Virus record (IMG/VR): IMGVR_UViG_2695420685_000015
Reading direction: 5' to 3' (one strand)
DNA length: 50,864 bases
Origin: a virus
Lineage: Duplodnaviria; Heunggongvirae; Uroviricota; Caudoviricetes
The notes under the pieces are model-generated. The model was given only the letters and a program-made list of their open reading frames with translations. It made no database searches and was not told the origin of the DNA. This document shows, piece by piece, positions 2,038 to 28,355 of this stretch (its first letter is position 1; every line of letters starts with the position of its first letter). Position numbers and translations under genes: made by a program.

Positions 2038-3723
2038 ATGAATACAGCCCTTTCTATCATCGACGATGCCAGCTCAAACACGGCTATCGACTATCGTCAG
2101 GAAATGAATGTCATCCACGAAATCGTGGCCGAGTGCGAGAAAGAGATCGCCTTCATGTATCAGGTACACGACTTCGTTTATGGCGACGAACGCCACAACA
2201 TGATTAATCGCCTGCTGAGACTAAACCATCGACCAGATGAAGATCGCTCGCGTTTAAATCGAGGTTGGTTGGATAAAGTCGATCTGGAATGGGTGAAACA
2301 GAATATTTGGGCCGAGTACTGGAGGAAGGTCACGGACATGACTAACGTTTTGCTGATCATGCCAGCTTCCCGTCGAGATGAGTGGCGCGAGCAGTTTATA
2401 GAGGGCAAACAGGAAGTCATCAAAACTGACAGAACCGGCTACCAGATGAAGGTTAAAGAGTTCGTTGGTGTACCGGAGTTCAAAGCAGAAACGGTCATAC
2501 CCACGATGCTTAATTTGCTGAATGACAGGCACAAATATCTCTCTGAGCGCGTGTATGGCTTGTTTAAGGCGCTGAGTCCTGCGCACAAGACAAATAAGAC
2601 AAACGGTTTCAGCGAGCGGCTGATAATCGCTGACTGCATTTCTGATTTCTGGCGGGACAGCGTTAGCGTGAACTATCGCAAAGAGGACTACATCGACGAT
2701 CTGCGTGTCTTGCTTCATTTCTTCGCGCACAAAGAATTTATTACCATCAACCGCACTGCTGAGGTGCTATCAGCTGCGTATAGGGCAAACGACTGCCAGA
2801 CCGGTGACTGGATGAACGTCGATGGAAATCTGATGCGCGTGAAGATGTTCAAGAACGGCAACGTTCACTTTGAAATACATCCTGACGTGGCCTGGAAGTT
2901 GAATGAGGTGCTGGCTTACAGTATGCCTGCTGCAATCCCCGCGCCATGCCGAACTGCGCCAAAAACACGGGCACCAAAGCAGTTCGGGTTAATCCAGAAG
3001 ACGATCTCCGTGCCGGTTCGCACTGCGCTTCGTGACGGGCGATTGAGCAAAGACAAAGGCGTATGGTACTTCTCTGATTCAGCTCTCCAGAAGTCGCAGG
3101 TGGAAGAGCTTGAGCGCACACTGAGCTTCATTGGCGGCGTGCAGGAGAAAAAGCACTGGCAGTTCCCGTATGACATCGGCCATACGCTAAATACGATTGT
3201 GGCTACCGGTTTAATACCGGATACTAAATCACACCAGTTCTACCCTACCCCACGCTTGATTGCTGAGTACGTTGCCAGAGCCACTGAATTGAAGTCTGGT
3301 GAGAAGCTGCTGGAGCCTCAAGCCGGACGTGGGGATCTTCTGGCCTATATTAACGCCGATCTGGAAGATGTTACCTGCATAGAAATCGCACCTCTCTTCG
3401 CTGATATCCTGCGTGGAAAAGGGTATACGAACACGATTTGCTGCGACTTCATAAAGTGGTCTGAGGACAACGCAGGTTATCAGTTCGACAAAATCGTTAT
3501 GAACCCGCCGTACTCGCTTGGTCGTCATAGAGAGCACACGATGGCTGCGCTGGGGCATCTGAAAGTCGGCGGGCGTCTTGTAGCAGTATTGCCGGGCACT
3601 GCGCCAATACTGGACTGGATGACGATGGATAATTACGTTTATGCCAGAGGGAAGTCGTTTACCAACGAGTTTGAAGACACAGGGATCACAGTCAGCGTAT
3701 ACGTTTTCAAACGCGTTAAATGA
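2038..3723 (+). CDS. orphan N6-adenine DNA methyltransferase with large N-terminal domain of unknown function
   Basis: C-terminal region has motif order FYPTP (motif X), LLEPQAGRGDL (motif I, SAM binding), VMNPPY (motif IV), i.e. gamma-class amino-MTase layout; no adjacent restriction gene. Confidence 0.8.
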   Translation: MNTALSIIDDASSNTAIDYRQEMNVIHEIVAECEKEIAFMYQVHDFVYGDERHNMINRLLRLNHRPDEDRSRLNRGWLDKVDLEWVKQNIWAEYWRKVTDMTNVLLIMPASRRDEWREQFIEGKQEVIKTDRTGYQMKVKEFVGVPEFKAETVIPTMLNLLNDRHKYLSERVYGLFKALSPAHKTNKTNGFSERLIIADCISDFWRDSVSVNYRKEDYIDDLRVLLHFFAHKEFITINRTAEVLSAAYRANDCQTGDWMNVDGNLMRVKMFKNGNVHFEIHPDVAWKLNEVLAYSMPAAIPAPCRTAPKTRAPKQFGLIQKTISVPVRTALRDGRLSKDKGVWYFSDSALQKSQVEELERTLSFIGGVQEKKHWQFPYDIGHTLNTIVATGLIPDTKSHQFYPTPRLIAEYVARATELKSGEKLLEPQAGRGDLLAYINADLEDVTCIEIAPLFADILRGKGYTNTICCDFIKWSEDNAGYQFDKIVMNPPYSLGRHREHTMAALGHLKVGGRLVAVLPGTAPILDWMTMDNYVYARGKSFTNEFEDTGITVSVYVFKRVK

Positions 3724-3784: not shown

Positions 3785-4489
3785 ATGAACAACCTCCAGT
3801 TAGAGCATTTTAACGTCACAGGCCATTCTGATTTTCCTTTCAAGTTTACATTGAAAGGTTATGCAGAGGATGCGGTAGGCCAGATCATTATTGATAAAGG
3901 CATCGTTAAGTTTGAGGGGAATTTTGATGAATCCGCGAAAACATTCATAGACTTCGTTGCCAAACGTTGGAGCGAGCAATGGAAAGACCTGGAAAAGCGC
4001 GCTAGTGAGTTTGATCGGTTCATGGATGCAATGGATACAGCAAAAGAGGCTCTTGCTGCCGGGACTCCGTTAGATCTTGAGTCACTTTTCAACGGCGAAG
4101 TGGCCTCTGCGATGTTCGCCACCATGTTCGCGGGTGAGTTCGTCCGCAGCGGTGCCAAAAACTACCTTGAGCTGGATTACAACGTCTCTGCAATTGGCGA
4201 TTTCGTCGTTACCATCCAACGCAAAGAAGGTAAGACGCCAGGTGAACGCGTCGCAGAGCTTGAGGCCGTTGTGGATCAGCGTAACGGAGAGTGTGACCGT
4301 TTGATCAACGAGCTTCATGCACTTCGGGAAGAAAGAATATGTGCGGGTAGCAATACACGTAATGCAGCGGATATCTACTTCCAGTTAGTTGAGGAATGCC
4401 AGATTCCACCAGGTGGCTCTCTTGTCGATTACGTCAGACATTTAATGGCGGAAGTTAACTCCAGCCATAAAGATGGTGAGGTGCGCTGA
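3785..4489 (+). CDS. hypothetical protein
   Basis: ATG start, 234 aa, G/C-rich third codon positions. Confidence 0.6.
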   Translation: MNNLQLEHFNVTGHSDFPFKFTLKGYAEDAVGQIIIDKGIVKFEGNFDESAKTFIDFVAKRWSEQWKDLEKRASEFDRFMDAMDTAKEALAAGTPLDLESLFNGEVASAMFATMFAGEFVRSGAKNYLELDYNVSAIGDFVVTIQRKEGKTPGERVAELEAVVDQRNGECDRLINELHALREERICAGSNTRNAADIYFQLVEECQIPPGGSLVDYVRHLMAEVNSSHKDGEVR

Positions 4490-4869
4490 TGTTTGGCATT
4501 GACGCACAGCGTATAGCCGCTTTTGCAAAAAGCCCTCTTGATAATCCCTTGTCTCGTAGTGAGCAAATGGAGCTGGCAAGGCTTTTTCTTCACATTCAAA
4601 AACAGGCAGACATTTTCAATAACATGCCTAATCAACCTATTCTGGATGGTCACATCCAGATGGTCATTAACAGTCATGAGAAAGGCTGGGCTGCAATCGT
4701 CCCCTGCACAATTACATACAAGTTGGCGAAAGAGGTTCAAGAGTTTCGAAAAGCCAGTGTCGAATCGGAGTCTACCAAAGCCGCAATAAACACTCTTATT
4801 CGCATGGGGTTCACATGGAACGGTGGAGCCTACTGGCAAGCACCTCACCCCATTTTATCCGGCAATTAG
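4489..4869 (+). CDS. hypothetical protein
   Basis: ATG overlaps upstream TGA (translational coupling); 126 aa. Confidence 0.55.
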   Translation: MFGIDAQRIAAFAKSPLDNPLSRSEQMELARLFLHIQKQADIFNNMPNQPILDGHIQMVINSHEKGWAAIVPCTITYKLAKEVQEFRKASVESESTKAAINTLIRMGFTWNGGAYWQAPHPILSGN

Positions 4870-4924
4870 ACGCTACAAATCCTTCGGCATGAATAAATAA
4901 AGGCCATAAGTTGTGGCCTTAAAT

Positions 4925-4978
4925 AAATTGTTTTCTACCTTTTCTTATTTGTGAAAATAACCACAACTAGAAAACAAC
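4925..4978 (+). promoter_or_regulatory. class-A promoter/operator copy 4
   Basis: Upstream half-palindrome AATTGTTTTCTACC, TGtGAAAAT -10-like, then AGAAAACAAC at 4969-4978. Confidence 0.5.
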
Positions 4979-4988
4979 GGAGTTAAGA

Positions 4989-5630
4989 ATGTCTAGTATT
5001 TCCGAAGCTCATATGTTCGCCGCTGGCGCTCATGGTGGCGTTGGTCAGAAAAGAAAATATACCGGCGAAGACTACATCAACCACCCGGTTGCTGTCCGAG
5101 AGATTGTTGCATTGCATGACGGAACCGTGGAGATGCAAATCGCGGCGCTTCTGCATGATGTGGTCGAAGACACCCATGTAACCATAGAGATGGTTCGTGA
5201 TCACTTCGGTGAGCGCGTAGCTGAAATGGTTCAGGCTCTGACCAACATTGCAAGGCCAGAAGACGGCAATCGAATACAGCGTTTCATCATCAATGTCCGG
5301 GAGCTGGAGCAAAATCTCGACATGCAGACGCGCATGATCAAGCTGGCTGACCTGCTCGACAATACCTCTTCTATCGTGAGTCGCGATCCCGAGTTTTCAG
5401 CTGTCTACCTCGCAGAGAAAGAACTGATGCTGGACGTACTCTTTCACGGCAAAGAGATTGGTGCCAACGCTGATGTTGTCGAGTACATGGAGAGGATAGG
5501 AATAGAACACCCGTTGCTATTAAGCGCAATGGCGAAAGTCACTGAAGGTATTGCGCTTCTGAAACCGGTACACATCAAACGTTATGAAAAACACAAATCG
5601 CTGATCTGGAGCGCGTGGGAGGCTGCATGA
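4989..5630 (+). CDS. HD-domain (p)ppGpp hydrolase-like protein (small alarmone hydrolase, SpoT/Mesh1 family)
   Basis: YINHPVAVREIVAL...AALLHDVVEDT matches the RelA/SpoT hydrolase HD signature; 213 aa, no synthetase domain. Confidence 0.8.
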   Translation: MSSISEAHMFAAGAHGGVGQKRKYTGEDYINHPVAVREIVALHDGTVEMQIAALLHDVVEDTHVTIEMVRDHFGERVAEMVQALTNIARPEDGNRIQRFIINVRELEQNLDMQTRMIKLADLLDNTSSIVSRDPEFSAVYLAEKELMLDVLFHGKEIGANADVVEYMERIGIEHPLLLSAMAKVTEGIALLKPVHIKRYEKHKSLIWSAWEAA

Positions 5631-6169
5631 AGGTCGAAAAAATAGATGTTCTTTCCTTTGTGCTGACGGATCTGGAACGCCTCGATCCGGTTCGAGTAAT
5701 GATTGAAAACTACGAACCTGGTAAGGGAAGAATCACCATCATCTGCTACGGAAAAGCGTGGACTGCGGCTTGGTTTGCTATGGGCGGTGATGATGTGCAG
5801 ACGTTCATTAAGCGGGTCAGCAACGAGTATCTAATCGGCTATTTCGACTCTCAACTGCGAAGCACGGTCGACGATGACAACGATGCAAATCTGCTTTTCG
5901 TGAAGTCAGAAATCATAAAGTTACGAAGAGAGAGAGAAATCGACGCCGTACTGGCTCGTGAAATGTGGGACGAGGCGGAAAACGCCGATGACGTAAAAGA
6001 AAGCTGCTGTTGTTTCGGCGTCGGTAACAAACTGCTGAATCTCTTTGGTGATGATCCGTGGTATGCCGACTGGCCAACGGTACCAAACCCGAAATACCAG
6101 TATCTGGAACGCATTGTGAACGCGGTACGTGAAGGGCTGAAAGAGTTAGATAAGTTAGAGGCATCGTAA
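5627..6169 (+). CDS. hypothetical protein
   Basis: ATG overlapping upstream TGA with GGGAGG RBS; track start 5615 is GTG. Confidence 0.55.
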   Translation: MKVEKIDVLSFVLTDLERLDPVRVMIENYEPGKGRITIICYGKAWTAAWFAMGGDDVQTFIKRVSNEYLIGYFDSQLRSTVDDDNDANLLFVKSEIIKLRREREIDAVLAREMWDEAENADDVKESCCCFGVGNKLLNLFGDDPWYADWPTVPNPKYQYLERIVNAVREGLKELDKLEAS

Positions 6170-6669
6170 TGAGAGAGAAAATCAAGAACCCGGTCGTCGT
6201 ATTGTATAAACGGGAAACCAGCGATTCTTATGCGGTATCCATCACTGATGGAAGCCAGAACATGCACGATGGTCTGCTAATGGCCTCCGTATCTCCTGAT
6301 GATTCTGACTACCCTTTCGCCACTTTCGCTATGGTTGGTTACTACATGGCTGCCGAAATTGAGAAGTTGCGAGCGCAGAGAGACGCATTAGCGGCGGAGA
6401 ATGCAGCCCTGAAAGAATCTGAGCGAGCATTCGATGCGATGTGTGCCGAGGAACACGGAGATAATTGGGTTAGCGAATTAACGGAGACTCCAGCCACCGA
6501 TGCTTTTCTGGCTGAAGTACGTGCGCAGGGCGTGGATATGGCTCGTAACGCGATGATTGATTTTGTTGATGGTGAAGTTGGGCCAAACAAGAACGTTCCG
6601 GGGCTGATTAGAGGCGCAGAGATATGCGTAAGTATTGCTGAACAGCTTCGTAAAGGAGTCATCCAGTGA
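6169..6669 (+). CDS. hypothetical protein
   Basis: ATG overlaps upstream TAA; 166 aa. Confidence 0.55.
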   Translation: MREKIKNPVVVLYKRETSDSYAVSITDGSQNMHDGLLMASVSPDDSDYPFATFAMVGYYMAAEIEKLRAQRDALAAENAALKESERAFDAMCAEEHGDNWVSELTETPATDAFLAEVRAQGVDMARNAMIDFVDGEVGPNKNVPGLIRGAEICVSIAEQLRKGVIQ

Positions 6670-7067
6670 GCAAGATTGACTATCAGGCACTGCGTGAGGC
6701 GGCAGAGCGTGCAATTCCGGCAATGGAACGCCTGTTAATGTTGCCAGTTGATGATGATCTGATAAGCGAACAGGAACTTAAAGATAGCGGTGTTGATATT
6801 GATGCCCTCAACGCCTTCAAATTTCTGGCCGGACCAGAAACCGTGCTGGCACTACTGGATGAGATCAACGCATTAGAGGAAACGCGTATCAACGATGTTT
6901 GCCGTATTGCGGAACTAACAAAACAACTGGAGTTGGCAAAATCAAAACTCAACGAGCAGCGTGAGTATTACGAGGGCGTTATCTCGGATGGAAGTAAGCG
7001 CATAGCCGCTCTTCTTCGCAAGGACAATCTTGCCAGCGCCACGAACATTGAAGGTGAAAGAAAATGA
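6666..7067 (+). CDS. hypothetical coiled-coil protein
   Basis: GTG start with AAGGAG RBS 7 nt upstream; 133 aa. Confidence 0.5.
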
Positions 7068-7912
7068 CCACATCGCACTCTGCTATTACCCAAGAAAAAG
7101 CCTTCAACATACTCGAACGACTAGAGACGCTCGCTACGGAGGAGGAGATATCCCCGGAGAAACTGGTTGAGTTCAGCCGTGTGATATTGCGTCGCAAGAA
7201 CGATATGGAGCGGCTGACATCTGGCGCTCCATCCTTATCAGTCAGGCGAACACTTTGTTGCAGCTTCTGCAACAAATCCCAGTACGCCGTCAAAAAGTTA
7301 ATTGCTGGGGACGCCGTTTTCATCTGCGACGAGTGTGGATGTGTGCAACAGAATTATCCGGGGAGAGAAAGAGGGATCAGCATGAAATTATCCAAATTTT
7401 CTGAGTTGGTGAATCGTATTTTGTCCAACAACCACAGCCATCGTCGCGATATGGATGTAACGATCGTTGTTCATTCGCCTGGTCGCATCGGTTCAACACC
7501 ATCAGTTGAGGTTCAGTCAATTAAGGCGGGTTTTGATTGGGATGCCGGGCAAGTGATGATTTTTCCATCACAGCCACTGACCACGCTAACACCAGAGCAG
7601 GTTGCTGATATCACTGATAGTGTGCGCAAAGGTCAGTCTTGGCACGCGTATCAGGAATACAAGAAGCATAAAGAGCAGTTGGAAAAATTGTCGATGGAGT
7701 TGGAAGCCGCTAAACAGCGGGAAAAAGATCTGTTTATGGAAAATGTTCGACTTAAGTCAGGTATAGCCGGTCTGATACACCTCGGTATTCGATATGCGGA
7801 TGTTGAGGTCATGAAAATTGCTGGAGATGCCCAGCTTTCTACTCCATGCACTGACAGCATCATAAACAGCATTGCAGCAGGCATTTTCACCAAAGAGGGG
7901 GCAGCACGATGA
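7064..7912 (+). CDS. ClpX-type C4 zinc-finger domain protein (ClpX N-terminal zinc-binding-domain homolog fused to unknown C-terminal region)
   Basis: [31 protein letters not shown] closely matches ClpX N-domain [29 protein letters not shown]; no AAA+ module in this 282-aa protein. Confidence 0.65.
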
Positions 7913-10612: not shown

Positions 10613-10639
10613 AGGTGGTGCATTGCACCACCTTTTTAT
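10613..10639. terminator. bidirectional terminator between UmuD-prime-like gene and apbC
   Basis: aggtggtgcattgcaccacct hairpin then ttttta. Confidence 0.65.
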
Positions 10640-11739
10640 CACACTGCGCGGAATGCGATTTCGCCAGGTATTACTTCACCTTGCCAATACATTTGGGCAG
10701 CAACGCGATCTGCGAGGTCACGATAAATAGCCGTAAATTCGCTATCTGGACGACTAATAACGGTTGGTGTTCCGTTATCCAGATCTTCACGAAGAGAGAT
10801 ATGAAGTGGCATTTGGCCTAACAACTGCGTGTTGTATTTCTCGGCCAGTTTCTGTGCGCCACCGGTGCCAAAAATTGGCTCGTGATGACCGCAGTTACTG
10901 CAAATATGCACACTCATGTTTTCGACGATACCTAGTACCGGCACTTCGACTTTTTCGAACATCACAATGCCTTTCTTCGCATCGATCAGCGCGATGTCTT
11001 GCGGCGTAGTTACCACAACCGCACCAGTTACAGGAATGTTCTGCGCCAGCGTCAACTGAATATCACCAGTGCCCGGCGGCATATCGAGAACGAGATAGTC
11101 CAGATCAGGCCATAGAGTTTCCTGCAACATCTGCATCAGCGCCTTGCTGGCCATCGGTCCACGCCACACCATTGCATTGTCGTCGGTGACCAGATAACCA
11201 ATAGAGTTGGTTGCCAGGCCATGAGACATGATAGGTGCCATGTGAGTACCGTCAGGTGAGGTTGGACGTTGGTTTTCCGCGCCCAGCATGGTTGGAATTG
11301 ATGGACCATAGATATCGGCATCCAAAATACCAACTTTCGCACCTTCAGCAGCCAAAGCCAGTGCCAAGTTTACTGCTGTGGACGATTTGCCTACACCGCC
11401 CTTGCCTGAGCTTACGGCGATAATATTCTTAACACCATTAATGCCTGGTTGGTTTTTGACGCGCTTAAGCGTGGCAATGTTGTACGACAGCTTCCAGTCA
11501 ATAGCCTTTGCGCCAGTGATACGGAGCAGATCACCACTACATTGCTCTTTCAGGTCTTCAAAAGGCTTATTCCACACGAAAGGCATGATTAGTTCGACAT
11601 GCAGTGTGTCATCCATCAACGCAACATGGTGTAACGCTTTAAGCGTAGTCAGGTTGTGTTTCAGGGTTGGGTGCTGAAAATTAGCCAGCGTACCGGCTAC
11701 CATTGCTCTCAGGGCATCCGGCGATTTGGACTCGCTCAT
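10639..11739 (-). CDS. apbC: iron-sulfur cluster carrier ATPase ApbC/Mrp
   Basis: 366 aa; deviant Walker A SSGKGGVGKSSTAVNLA, C-terminal CSNCGH motif; AAGGAGA RBS; from memory near-identical to E. coli Mrp. Confidence 0.95.
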   Translation of the reverse strand: MSESKSPDALRAMVAGTLANFQHPTLKHNLTTLKALHHVALMDDTLHVELIMPFVWNKPFEDLKEQCSGDLLRITGAKAIDWKLSYNIATLKRVKNQPGINGVKNIIAVSSGKGGVGKSSTAVNLALALAAEGAKVGILDADIYGPSIPTMLGAENQRPTSPDGTHMAPIMSHGLATNSIGYLVTDDNAMVWRGPMASKALMQMLQETLWPDLDYLVLDMPPGTGDIQLTLAQNIPVTGAVVVTTPQDIALIDAKKGIVMFEKVEVPVLGIVENMSVHICSNCGHHEPIFGTGGAQKLAEKYNTQLLGQMPLHISLREDLDNGTPTVISRPDSEFTAIYRDLADRVAAQMYWQGEVIPGEIAFRAV

Positions 11740-11896
11740 CCCGTCTCCTTTATTTTAATTTGCGCAATTGTCGCCTTGTAGTGTACTCCAGCTGCGACAT
11801 TTAATCATTTATGAGAAATGCTGTTATCACATGGCAGACATAAGGCCATTTTGTTACTATCAAGCCCCTTTTCACTACAAAGAAGTAATGCCTACT

Positions 11897-13930
11897 ATGA
11901 CCCAAGTCGCGAAGAAAATTCTGGTGACGTGCGCGCTGCCGTACGCTAACGGCTCAATCCACCTCGGCCATATGCTGGAGCACATCCAGGCTGATGTCTG
12001 GGTTCGTTACCAGCGAATGCGCGGCCACGAGGTTAATTTCATCTGTGCCGACGATGCCCACGGTACGCCGATCATGCTGAAAGCACAGCAACTTGGTATC
12101 ACACCGGAGCAGATGATTGGCGAAATGAGTCAGGAACACCAGACTGATTTCGCAGGCTTTAACATCAGCTATGACAACTATCACTCGACGCACAGCGAAG
12201 AGAACCGTCAGTTGTCTGAGCTTATCTATACTCGCCTGAAAGAGAACGGTTTTATTAAAAATCGCACTATCTCTCAGTTGTACGACCCGGAAAAAGGCAT
12301 GTTCCTGCCGGATCGTTTTGTGAAAGGCACCTGCCCGAAATGTAAAGCGCCAGATCAATACGGCGATAACTGTGAAGTTTGCGGCGCGACCTACAGCCCG
12401 ACTGAACTGATCGAGCCGAAATCGGTGGTTTCTGGTGCTACCCCGGTAATGCGTGATTCTGAACACTTCTTCTTTGATCTGCCCTCTTTCAGCGAAATGT
12501 TGCAGGCATGGACCCGCAGCGGTGCGTTGCAGGAGCAGGTGGCAAACAAAATGCAGGAGTGGTTTGAATCTGGTCTGCAACAGTGGGATATCTCCCGCGA
12601 CGCACCTTACTTCGGTTTTGAAATTCCGAACGCGCCGGGTAAATATTTCTACGTCTGGCTGGACGCACCGATTGGCTACATGGGTTCCTTCAAGAATCTG
12701 TGCGACAAGCGCGGCGACACTACCAGCTTCGATGAATACTGGAAGAAAGACTCCACCGCCGAGCTGTACCACTTCATCGGTAAAGATATCGTTTACTTCC
12801 ACAGCCTGTTCTGGCCTGCCATGCTGGAAGGCAGCAACTTCCGCAAGCCGACCAACCTGTTTGTTCACGGCTATGTGACGGTGAACGGCGCGAAGATGTC
12901 CAAGTCTCGCGGCACCTTTATTAAAGCCAGCACCTGGTTGAATCATTTTGACGCTGACAGCCTGCGTTACTACTACACTGCGAAACTCTCTTCGCGCATT
13001 GATGATATCGATCTCAACCTGGAGGATTTCGTTCAGCGTGTGAATGCCGATATCGTGAACAAAGTGGTTAACCTGGCGTCCCGTAACGCTGGCTTTATCA
13101 ATAAGCGTTTTGACGGTGTGCTGGCAAGCGAGCTGGCTGACCCGCAGTTGTACAAAACCTTCACTGATGCCGCTGAAGTGATTGGTGAAGCGTGGGAAAG
13201 CCGCGAATTTGGTAAAGCTATCCGTGAAATCATGGCACTGGCTGACCTGGCTAACCGCTATGTCGACGAGCAGGCTCCTTGGGTAGTCGCAAAACAGGAA
13301 GGTCGCGATGCTGACCTGCAGGCGATTTGCTCAATGGGCATCAACCTGTTCCGCGTGCTGATGACTTACCTGAAACCGGTACTGCCGAAACTGACAGAAC
13401 GTGCGGAAGCATTCCTGAATACGGAACTGACCTGGGATGGCATCCAGCAACCGCTGCTGGGCCATAAAGTGAATCCGTTCAAAGCACTGTATAACCGTAT
13501 CGACATGAAACAGGTGGAAGCATTGGTGGAAGCGTCTAAAGAAGAAGTGAAAGCTACTGCCGCGCCAGTTACTGGCCCGCTGGCAGACGACCCGATTCAG
13601 GAAACCATCACCTTTGACGACTTTGCCAAAGTTGACCTGCGCGTGGCACTGATCGAAAACGCAGAGTTTGTTGAAGGTTCTGACAAACTGCTGCGCCTGA
13701 CGCTGGATCTCGGCGGTGAAAAACGCAATGTCTTCTCAGGCATCCGTTCTGCTTATCCAGACCCACAGGCACTGATTGGTCGTCACACCATTATGGTGGC
13801 TAACCTGGCTCCGCGTAAGATGCGCTTCGGCATCTCCGAAGGTATGGTGATGGCTGCTGGCCCCGGCGGGAAAGATATCTTCCTGTTAAGCCCGGATGCT
13901 GGTGCTAAACCTGGCCACCAGGTTAAGTAA
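11897..13930 (+). CDS. metG: methionyl-tRNA synthetase
   Basis: 677 aa from ATG 11897 (track start 11768 is an upstream extension); [15 protein letters not shown] motif, KMSKS motif, CPKC...CEVC zinc knuckles, C-terminal tRNA-binding domain; from memory ~99% identical to E. coli MetG. Confidence 0.97.
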
Positions 13931-13978: not shown

Positions 13979-14014
13979 ATATAGACACAATCCCTCCTGA
14001 TTTACACAAGCCCT

Positions 14015-14079
14015 AAAACAATTTGTTTTCTACCTTTTGTTGATTGAGATAATAAGCCACATAAGAAAACAAATTGTTT
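14015..14079 (+). promoter_or_regulatory. class-A promoter/operator copy 5 (both palindrome copies)
   Basis: AAAACAATTTGTTTT at 14015-14029, TGaGATAAT, then AGAAAACAAATTGTTT at 14064-14079. Confidence 0.55.
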
Positions 14080-17257: not shown

Positions 17258-17292
17258 TGCGATAATAACACCATCAAGAAAACATGTTGTTT
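17258..17292 (+). promoter_or_regulatory. class-A promoter/operator copy 6
   Basis: TGcGATAAT then AGAAAACATGTTGTTT at 17277-17292; first in-frame ATG 17284 lies inside the motif. Confidence 0.55.
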
Positions 17293-17740: not shown

Positions 17741-17776
17741 TGGTATTATTTACGCCATTGAGAAAACAAGTTGTTT
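17741..17776 (+). promoter_or_regulatory. class-A promoter/operator copy 7
   Basis: TGgTATTAT then AGAAAACAAGTTGTTT at 17761-17776. Confidence 0.55.
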
Positions 17777-18631: not shown

Positions 18632-18658
18632 ATGGCGCGTAAACCGCGCCATTTTCTT
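18632..18658 (+). terminator. rho-independent terminator
   Basis: atggcgcgtaaaccgcgccat then tttctt. Confidence 0.65.
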
Positions 18659-18667
18659 ATGCCCGAT

Positions 18668-18730
18668 AACAATTTGTTTTCTGCCTTTATCTCGCTGCGA
18701 TAATTACAACAACAAGAAAACAACATGTTT
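18668..18730 (+). promoter_or_regulatory. class-A promoter/operator copy 8 (both palindrome copies)
   Basis: AACAATTTGTTTT at 18668-18680, TGcGATAAT, AGAAAACAACATGTTT at 18715-18730. Confidence 0.55.
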
Positions 18731-19182: not shown

Positions 19183-19215
19183 GATAATTAACACAAACAA
19201 GAAAACAATTTGTTA
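19183..19215 (+). promoter_or_regulatory. class-A promoter/operator copy 9
   Basis: GATAAT at 19183-19188 then AGAAAACAATTTGTTA at 19200-19215. Confidence 0.55.
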
Positions 19216-28313: not shown

Positions 28314-28355
28314 AGAAAACAAGTTGGTTAGAAAATGCAGTAAACAAGTTGTTTT
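28314..28355 (+). promoter_or_regulatory. class-A motif pair upstream of terminase small subunit
   Basis: AGAAAACAAGTTGGTT at 28314-28329 and AAACAAGTTGTTTT at 28342-28355. Confidence 0.5.

Follow-up and report, generated by a model that had tools for sequence, protein, structure and literature searches.

The window analysed here, i.e., the whole stretch of 50,864 nucleotides, encodes a 213-amino-acid protein that, judged from its sequence, is a RelA/SpoT-type hydrolase with one domain, in other words a small alarmone hydrolase (SAH). On the same grounds, it is the Escherichia coli phage-plasmid orthologue of PaSpo^SSU5, which places it in the PaSpo subfamily (as classified by Atkinson 2011 / Jimmy 2020) by orthology to a tested representative. 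We regard it as highly probable that the protein is a Mn2+-dependent 3'-pyrophosphohydrolase of the RelA/SpoT-homologue class, of the PaSpo type, that counters toxSAS.

In terms of domain architecture, the Pfam family HD_4 (PF13328) covered residues 8–135 of the SAH (E = 1.2e-18; 67.8 bits, with a gathering cutoff of 27.2 bits), and the generic HD family (PF01966), which also scored over its cutoff, was the only other Pfam domain. The NCBIfam models spoT_relA and SpoT, which are about 690–700 positions long, were matched over model positions 1–123 and 23–152, respectively. Because only the N-terminal parts of these models were matched, the SAH corresponds to the hydrolase domain and nothing more; synthetase, TGS, and ACT domains were absent in the Pfam and NCBIfam searches. 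Among the PHROGs, the protein was assigned to phrog_990, 'metal-dependent phosphohydrolase' (2.9e-55), and the PADLOC-DB defence-protein models matched neither the SAH nor four of its neighbours. The preliminary description of this DNA had proposed a stand-alone SpoT/Mesh1-like hydrolase of 213 amino acids without a synthetase domain, recognized from the motifs HPVAV and AALLHDVVEDT. Both motifs are present as claimed (residues 32–36 and 52–62), and the proposal proved correct by sequence, residues, and fold.

The conservation alignment comprised 49 homologues that were 43–88% identical to the SAH, and H32, H56, D57, E60, D61, D121, N125, R22, and K23 were invariant throughout. When the SAH was aligned with SpoT and Mesh1, the check that had been suggested for its metal-binding residues, all four metal ligands (H32, H56, D57, and D121) were found to be present. 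The roles assigned to these residues, including the Mn2+ ligands H35, H61, D62, and D122 of MESH1, are those reportedly established for MESH1 and RelSeq (work said to be that of Sun et al. 2010 and Hogg et al. 2004). The Asp of the MESH1 RKD motif has no counterpart in the SAH, which carries KRKY instead. A phmmer search against the PDB sequences matched Acinetobacter baumannii SpoT (1.7e-13), Mycobacterium tuberculosis Rel (5e-13), and human MESH1 (1.7e-12), and further matches were obtained to RelSeq, Thermus thermophilus Rel, the Pseudomonas aeruginosa SAH, Corynebacterium glutamicum RelH, and the Bacteroides caccae (p)ppApp hydrolase; a profile of the SAH family strengthened these matches to approximately 1e-23 to 1e-24. 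Matches of this kind lie well outside what chance would give. The AlphaFold2 model, built from the 49-homologue alignment, was all-helical and very confident (mean pLDDT 96.9, pTM 0.92). With this model as the query, Foldseek returned 41 PDB matches at E ≤ 1e-3, every one of them an RSH hydrolase. The best superposition was with MESH1 (3nr1; TMq 0.70, TMt 0.83), and the other top matches were the P. aeruginosa SAH, C. glutamicum RelH, and the hydrolase domains of T. thermophilus Rel and A. baumannii SpoT.

Compared with the known members of the class, the SAH shares with human and Drosophila MESH1 (3nr1, 3nqw, and 5vxa) the H..HD..ED..D..N constellation at 26–28% sequence identity, and MESH1 is its best structural match; however, MESH1 is a metazoan protein of 179 amino acids, whereas the SAH has about 35 extra C-terminal residues, predicted by AlphaFold2 to form additional helices. 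MESH1 neutralizes toxSAS and de-pyrophosphorylates tRNA, and it is also an NADPH phosphatase. The P. aeruginosa SAH (6yvc, 6z3n), C. glutamicum RelH (7qoc/7qod), and B. caccae Aph1 (7smg) resemble the SAH in fold and as stand-alone hydrolases but are only 21–27% identical to it, are chromosomal, and in many cases accompany (p)ppApp toxins or have housekeeping roles. The HD domains of SpoT and Rel (7qpr, 1vj7, 6s2t, and 5xnx) were the best sequence matches and represent the homologous catalytic domain, although these long RSH proteins additionally contain synthetase, TGS, and ACT domains and are controlled allosterically, none of which applies to the SAH. The PbcSpo-type SAHs, such as the C. 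marina type IV antitoxin ATfaRel and the SAH of Salmonella phage PVP-SE1, are likewise single-domain RSH hydrolases but constitute another SAH subfamily; they neutralize every toxSAS tested, and ATfaRel strips the 3'-pyrophosphate from tRNA in vitro. The ATfaRel gene shares an operon with that of its toxSAS; no synthetase gene neighbours the SAH gene in the window.

Table. Positions of the SAH gene, its motifs, and the surrounding features in the window
Feature	Position	Strand	Details
GC-rich, terminator-like hairpin marking the start of a separate unit	4900..4920	.	Follows the upstream gene (stop at 4869); scored on the - strand, palindrome readable on the + strand
Copy of the repeated intergenic module	4921..4977	.	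AGAAAACAA-N-TTGTTT at 4921-4936 and half-site TAGAAAACAA at 4968-4977; 80-nt family D2
Two-gene accessory cassette (SAH and PF26211 gene), 1,205 bp	4964..6168	+	Present in the window, pECOH89, and SSU5; absent from phage Cyrano
Shine-Dalgarno sequence GGAG	4979..4982	+	6 nt 5' of the SAH ATG; read from the sequence
SAH coding sequence, 213 aa, orthologue of PaSpo^SSU5 (SSU5_099)	4989..5630	+	ATG at 4989, TGA at 5630; Pfam, PHROGs, alignment, AlphaFold2/Foldseek
R22-K23, basic pair, phosphate-binding motif	5052..5057	+	Aligned with MESH1 R24-K25 (3nr1 alignment); invariant in 49 homologues
HPVAV; H32 is the first metal ligand	5082..5096	+	H32 aligned with MESH1 H35; H32 and P33 invariant in 49 homologues
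AALLHDVVEDT; H56-D57 metal ligands, E60-D61 catalytic ED pair	5142..5174	+	Aligned with MESH1 H61/D62 and E65/D66; all four invariant
KLADLLDN (residues 118-125); D121 fourth metal ligand, N125 conserved	5340..5363	+	Aligned with MESH1 D122 and N126; K118, D121, and N125 invariant
Downstream ORF, 180 aa, PF26211 and C-terminal part of phrog_3451; second gene of the cassette	5627..6169	+	ATG overlaps the SAH stop (ATGA); 87% identical to SSU5_100
AGAAAACAA-N-TTGTTT sites, examples	567-582, 1296-1311, 2010-2025, 4921-4936, 14016-14031, 14064-14079		Motif scan
AGAAAACAA-N-TTGTTT sites, further examples	17277-17292, 17761-17776, 18667-18682, 18715-18730, 19200-19215, 28314-28354		Motif scan

The SAH was 87% identical to SSU5_099 (AFL47026), a protein annotated as guanosine polyphosphate pyrophosphohydrolase, in a gapless alignment over 213 of 213 amino acids, and the gene order around the two genes was the same. 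Since tblastn detected only one SAH-like locus in phage SSU5, SSU5_099 is the published PaSpo^SSU5. None of the 27 substitutions between the two proteins fell at invariant or near-invariant columns, and 19 were located in the C-terminal third (residues 136–213). Both are carried by the same phage-plasmid family, with an Eaa-like gene upstream and a PF26211 gene overlapping downstream, and both retain the catalytic residues; they differ in that PaSpo^SSU5 comes from a Salmonella host lineage, whereas the SAH of the window occurs in E. coli (pECOH89-type).

In E. coli, PaSpo^SSU5 neutralizes all five of the toxSAS tested, namely CapRel, PhRel, PhRel2, FaRel, and FaRel2 (Jimmy et al. 2020, PNAS, PMC7229694, Table 1), and phage SAHs were proposed in the same work as a means by which incoming phages bypass toxSAS defence (PMC7229694, Discussion). 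Leaky expression of PaSpo^SSU5 suffices to neutralize FaRel2, and the protein has become a routine detoxifying reagent that permits the expression of CapRel^SJ46, PhRel2, and FaRel2. FaRel is a producer of (pp)pApp. [quoted passage not shown] Because PaSpo^SSU5 neutralizes both classes of toxSAS, its likeliest chemistry is the removal of 3'-pyrophosphate from nucleotides and tRNA, and a later paper states that PaSpo acts in this way (Sci Adv 2024, PMC11559606). In the literature available, direct in vitro hydrolysis is reported for ATfaRel and MESH1, and the support for PaSpo consists of genetic neutralization and this later citing statement. On this basis, the substrate range of PaSpo likely includes 3'-pyrophosphate on tRNA, (pp)pApp, and (p)ppGpp. 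For the allele in the window, we infer its own toxSAS neutralization, its substrates, and its counter-defence role in vivo. The preliminary description had suggested a counter to alarmone-based toxins or immunity; this is supported by the neutralization of five toxSAS by the 87% identical orthologue (PMC7229694), with the refinement that four of the five make no alarmones. Thus, that interpretation is supported, and the protein (through its orthologue) and the anti-toxSAS idea are already known from publications.

Over the 1.8 kb around the SAH gene, identity was 99.6–99.8% to non-mobilizable E. coli plasmids of ~110 kb (e.g., pECOH89, NC_023916) and 87% to Salmonella phage SSU5. Elsewhere, the window carries genes for terminase, portal, capsid, tape-measure, and tail proteins and for ParB-like proteins. 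Together, the identity to these plasmids and to SSU5 and the presence of phage structural and ParB-like genes indicate that the window belongs to an SSU5-family phage-plasmid. The SAH gene and the gene after it form an accessory cassette. Homology to the sister phage Cyrano stops at position 4963 and restarts at 6169, and Cyrano has 43 bp in between (blastn), i.e., a clean indel. The full SAH gene was found in 36 of 5,426 complete E. coli genomes, plasmid-borne in every case, and in 122 PLSDB plasmids from Escherichia, Enterobacter, Salmonella, and Citrobacter; by way of comparison, 197 plasmids carried the terminase of this kind of phage-plasmid. The protein cluster of the SAH, P0001 (99% identical to the window protein), had 705 member sequences.

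Degraded forms of the gene were also observed. In the related plasmids CP057685.1, NZ_CP022167.1, and NZ_JBSWAS010000002.1, only the initial 43 nt of the gene (4989–5031) were matched, at 100% identity and with nothing annotated there, and from their sequences these remnants look like deletion scars of a loss event other than that of Cyrano. Several Enterobacter and E. coli plasmids encode SAH chimeras, in which the C-terminal ~140–155 amino acids are 82–85% identical to the SAH but are joined to a foreign N-terminus without the HP/HD metal ligands. The N-terminus of one chimera (P0012) resembles the window ORF at 3785–4489, another (P0010) is annotated as an AAA ATPase, and a further relative (P0009) has HG in place of HD. 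These decapitated chimeras and the HG variant show that the array has been subject to recombination and decay.

The SAH gene belongs to a series of small genes, all on one strand, that resemble the lambda 'ea' genes (Ead/Ea22, DUF4942 methylase), so its earlier placement in an 'accessory array' was fair. The three genes on either side encode only a DUF4942 methyltransferase, Ead/Ea22-like domains, and domains of unknown function; no RelA_SpoT synthetase was found among them or among the proteins that PGAP annotates on pECOH89 over the extent of the window. The SSU5-like plasmids of Klebsiella have the SAH gene directly 5' of the DUF4942 gene, and in metagenomic phage contigs, it lies amid unrelated small ORFs, with no synthetase next to it in either setting. 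We considered whether the SAH is a type IV antitoxin of a toxSAS operon, like ATfaRel, and rejected this because no synthetase adjoins it in the window, its relatives, or the contigs; the lack of a synthetase neighbour indicates a stand-alone enzyme, not a cognate antitoxin. The overlapping downstream ORF was likewise rejected as a functional partner of the SAH, because its family is widespread without the SAH and is not adjacent to it in the Klebsiella relatives; nothing was found to connect the two in function. Chromosomal prophages of Enterobacterales devoid of an SAH commonly encode PF26211 proteins, some of which have a different module joined to the N-terminus. AlphaFold2 gave a best pLDDT of 89.9 for this ORF, with the five models spanning 53 to 90; there was no significant PDB fold match (best Foldseek E-value 0.06) and no match in the local Pfam, NCBIfam, and PADLOC libraries. 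Homology of this ORF to the 'Eae-like' gene of Cyrano was also discarded, as that gene matches the window ORF at 6169–6669 instead.

The 287-position profile of phrog_3451 matched residues 13–101 of the ORF at 3785–4489 (profile positions 13–101) and the whole of the ORF at 5627–6169 (profile positions 105–282); these two parts form one protein in other phages, suggesting that modules have been shuffled around the SAH. The 561-amino-acid product of 2038–3723 combines DUF4942 in its N-terminal half with a C-terminal half that resembles DNA methyltransferases (phrog_6263, 6e-300). Its gene is conserved beside or close to that of the SAH in the SSU5-like elements of E. coli, Salmonella, and Klebsiella, and the protein is likely an anti-restriction methylase. 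At 7064–7912, the window has a single ORF of 282 amino acids with an N-terminal ClpX-type C4 zinc finger (PF06689, 2e-10); the equivalent region of pECOH89 has two overlapping CDSs of 107 and 176 amino acids, indicating a small frameshifting indel between the elements.

Upstream of the SAH gene, the terminator-like hairpin is followed by one copy of a repeated intergenic module. The palindromic 16-nt motif of this module, AGAAAACAA-N-TTGTTT, occurred 22 times (≤2 mismatches, at about 15 sites), against 0.34 occurrences expected; all sites were intergenic, confined to the non-structural half (window positions 560–28360), and usually located 10–40 nt upstream of ORF starts. Pairs of motifs approximately 48 nt apart formed a module of ~80 nt at 4905–4984 (5' of the SAH), 14000–14079, and 18651–18730, and the same module was found upstream of another SSU5 gene. 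From this arrangement, the module probably serves the early or accessory genes as an operator, a promoter, or a module boundary. No convincing sigma-70 promoter candidate was found on the + strand upstream of the SAH. The sequence TGTGA-N6-CCACA at 4950–4965 resembles a CRP site by eye, but its centre is ~31 nt from the SAH ATG, a position unfit for activation.

In the mechanism that we propose, the SAH would remove the 3'-pyrophosphate from toxSAS-modified tRNA and from (pp)pApp and (p)ppGpp, and the phage-plasmid and its host would thereby escape growth arrest or abortive infection by CapRel-, PhRel-, or FaRel-type systems, whether these reside in the host itself or in competing prophages. 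CapRel^SJ46 comes from a temperate phage of Salmonella, and E. coli prophages encode it as well; since these are also the hosts of the phage-plasmid, a role in counter-defence or compatibility is plausible. We suggest, tentatively and at somewhat less than even odds, that the native SAH is a determinant of counter-defence or compatibility during infection, establishment, or induction in enterobacteria with CapRel-type toxSAS (e.g., in P1-like or SJ46-like prophages), perhaps together with the translationally coupled PF26211 protein as a mobile two-gene cassette. In the literature searched, we found no infection experiment on a phage SAH and none on the toxSAS sensitivity of a phage or phage-plasmid lacking PaSpo, and the SAH is missing from the anti-defence genes reported in surveys of SSU5 phage-plasmids with DefenseFinder.

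The catalytic domain could also serve host takeover or maintenance: the SAH would lower host (p)ppGpp and blunt the stringent response, with benefits for replication, the outcome of the lysis–lysogeny decision, or the upkeep of the plasmid state, and toxSAS neutralization would be a side effect of over-expression. The homology of the domain to those with which SpoT and Rel hydrolyze (p)ppGpp fits this reading, as does the link between alarmone accumulation and phage infection (PMC7229694, Discussion), and 249 phage records contain SAH homologues, many of them from virulent jumbo phages, for which general host manipulation is plausible. However, only ~16% of the E. coli SSU5-like plasmids carry the SAH (36 genomes vs ~223 plasmid metG-apbC loci), indicating that it is dispensable for the life cycle, and the functional data consist of toxSAS neutralization alone; we consider host takeover unlikely, at about one chance in four.

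It is less probable still that the SAH protects the lysogen from delivered (p)ppApp synthetase toxins, such as Tas1-like type VI effectors or MuF/CDI polymorphic toxins, and is thus an immunity gene of benefit to the host, not a phage counter-defence. The resemblance of the SAH to the (p)ppApp hydrolases Aph1 (7smg) and PaSAH (6z3n/6yvc) in sequence and fold, the neutralization of the (pp)pApp producer FaRel by PaSpo^SSU5, and the carriage of the SAH by plasmid-state elements in E. coli of clinical and environmental origin are consistent with such protection, although it shares its mechanism in part with the toxSAS-countering hydrolase that we favour. A non-alarmone substrate, i.e., NADPH, as for the MESH1 NADPH phosphatase, or other 3'-phosphorylated metabolites, seems very improbable: MESH1–NADPH and MESH1–PAPS complexes were among the best structural matches, and an orphan bacterial SAH is reported to be metabolically promiscuous (PMC9765508), but such a substrate leaves the neutralization of five of five toxSAS by the orthologue unexplained. 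Finally, close relatives of the SAH include decapitated chimeras (P0010 and P0012–14) and the HD-to-HG variant (P0009), but the allele in the window is full length, retains all invariant residues, yields a very confident AlphaFold2 model, and belongs to a cluster of 705 sequences (P0001), so we dismiss a degenerate, inactive remnant as extremely improbable.

Elsewhere in the window, positions 10639–13930 contain a full-length methionyl-tRNA synthetase gene, metG (tRNA-synt_1g 5e-166 plus tRNA_bind), divergent from a gene for an Mrp/ApbC P-loop ATPase. This arrangement is that of the E. coli chromosome, with DNA ~90% identical to it, which together indicate that metG-apbC is a diverged, captured host locus. 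It occurs at 223 plasmid places in the complete E. coli genomes and is absent from phage SSU5. The combination of a second MetRS with a putatively tRNA-repairing SAH is intriguing. No tRNA genes or Rfam families that might serve as a tRNA-based counter-measure were found in the window.

These results are a confirmation, not a discovery: the broad-spectrum toxSAS-neutralizing hydrolase known from SSU5 is also carried, as an orthologue, by pECOH89-type E. coli phage-plasmids. Phage-plasmids of this type spread CTX-M-15, and the gene acts in them as a movable accessory cassette that a minority of the elements possess. The SAH could serve as an annotation marker that is currently missed by the anti-defence surveys of SSU5 phage-plasmids, and it offers a possible starting point for asking whether SAHs act as counter-defences during infection.
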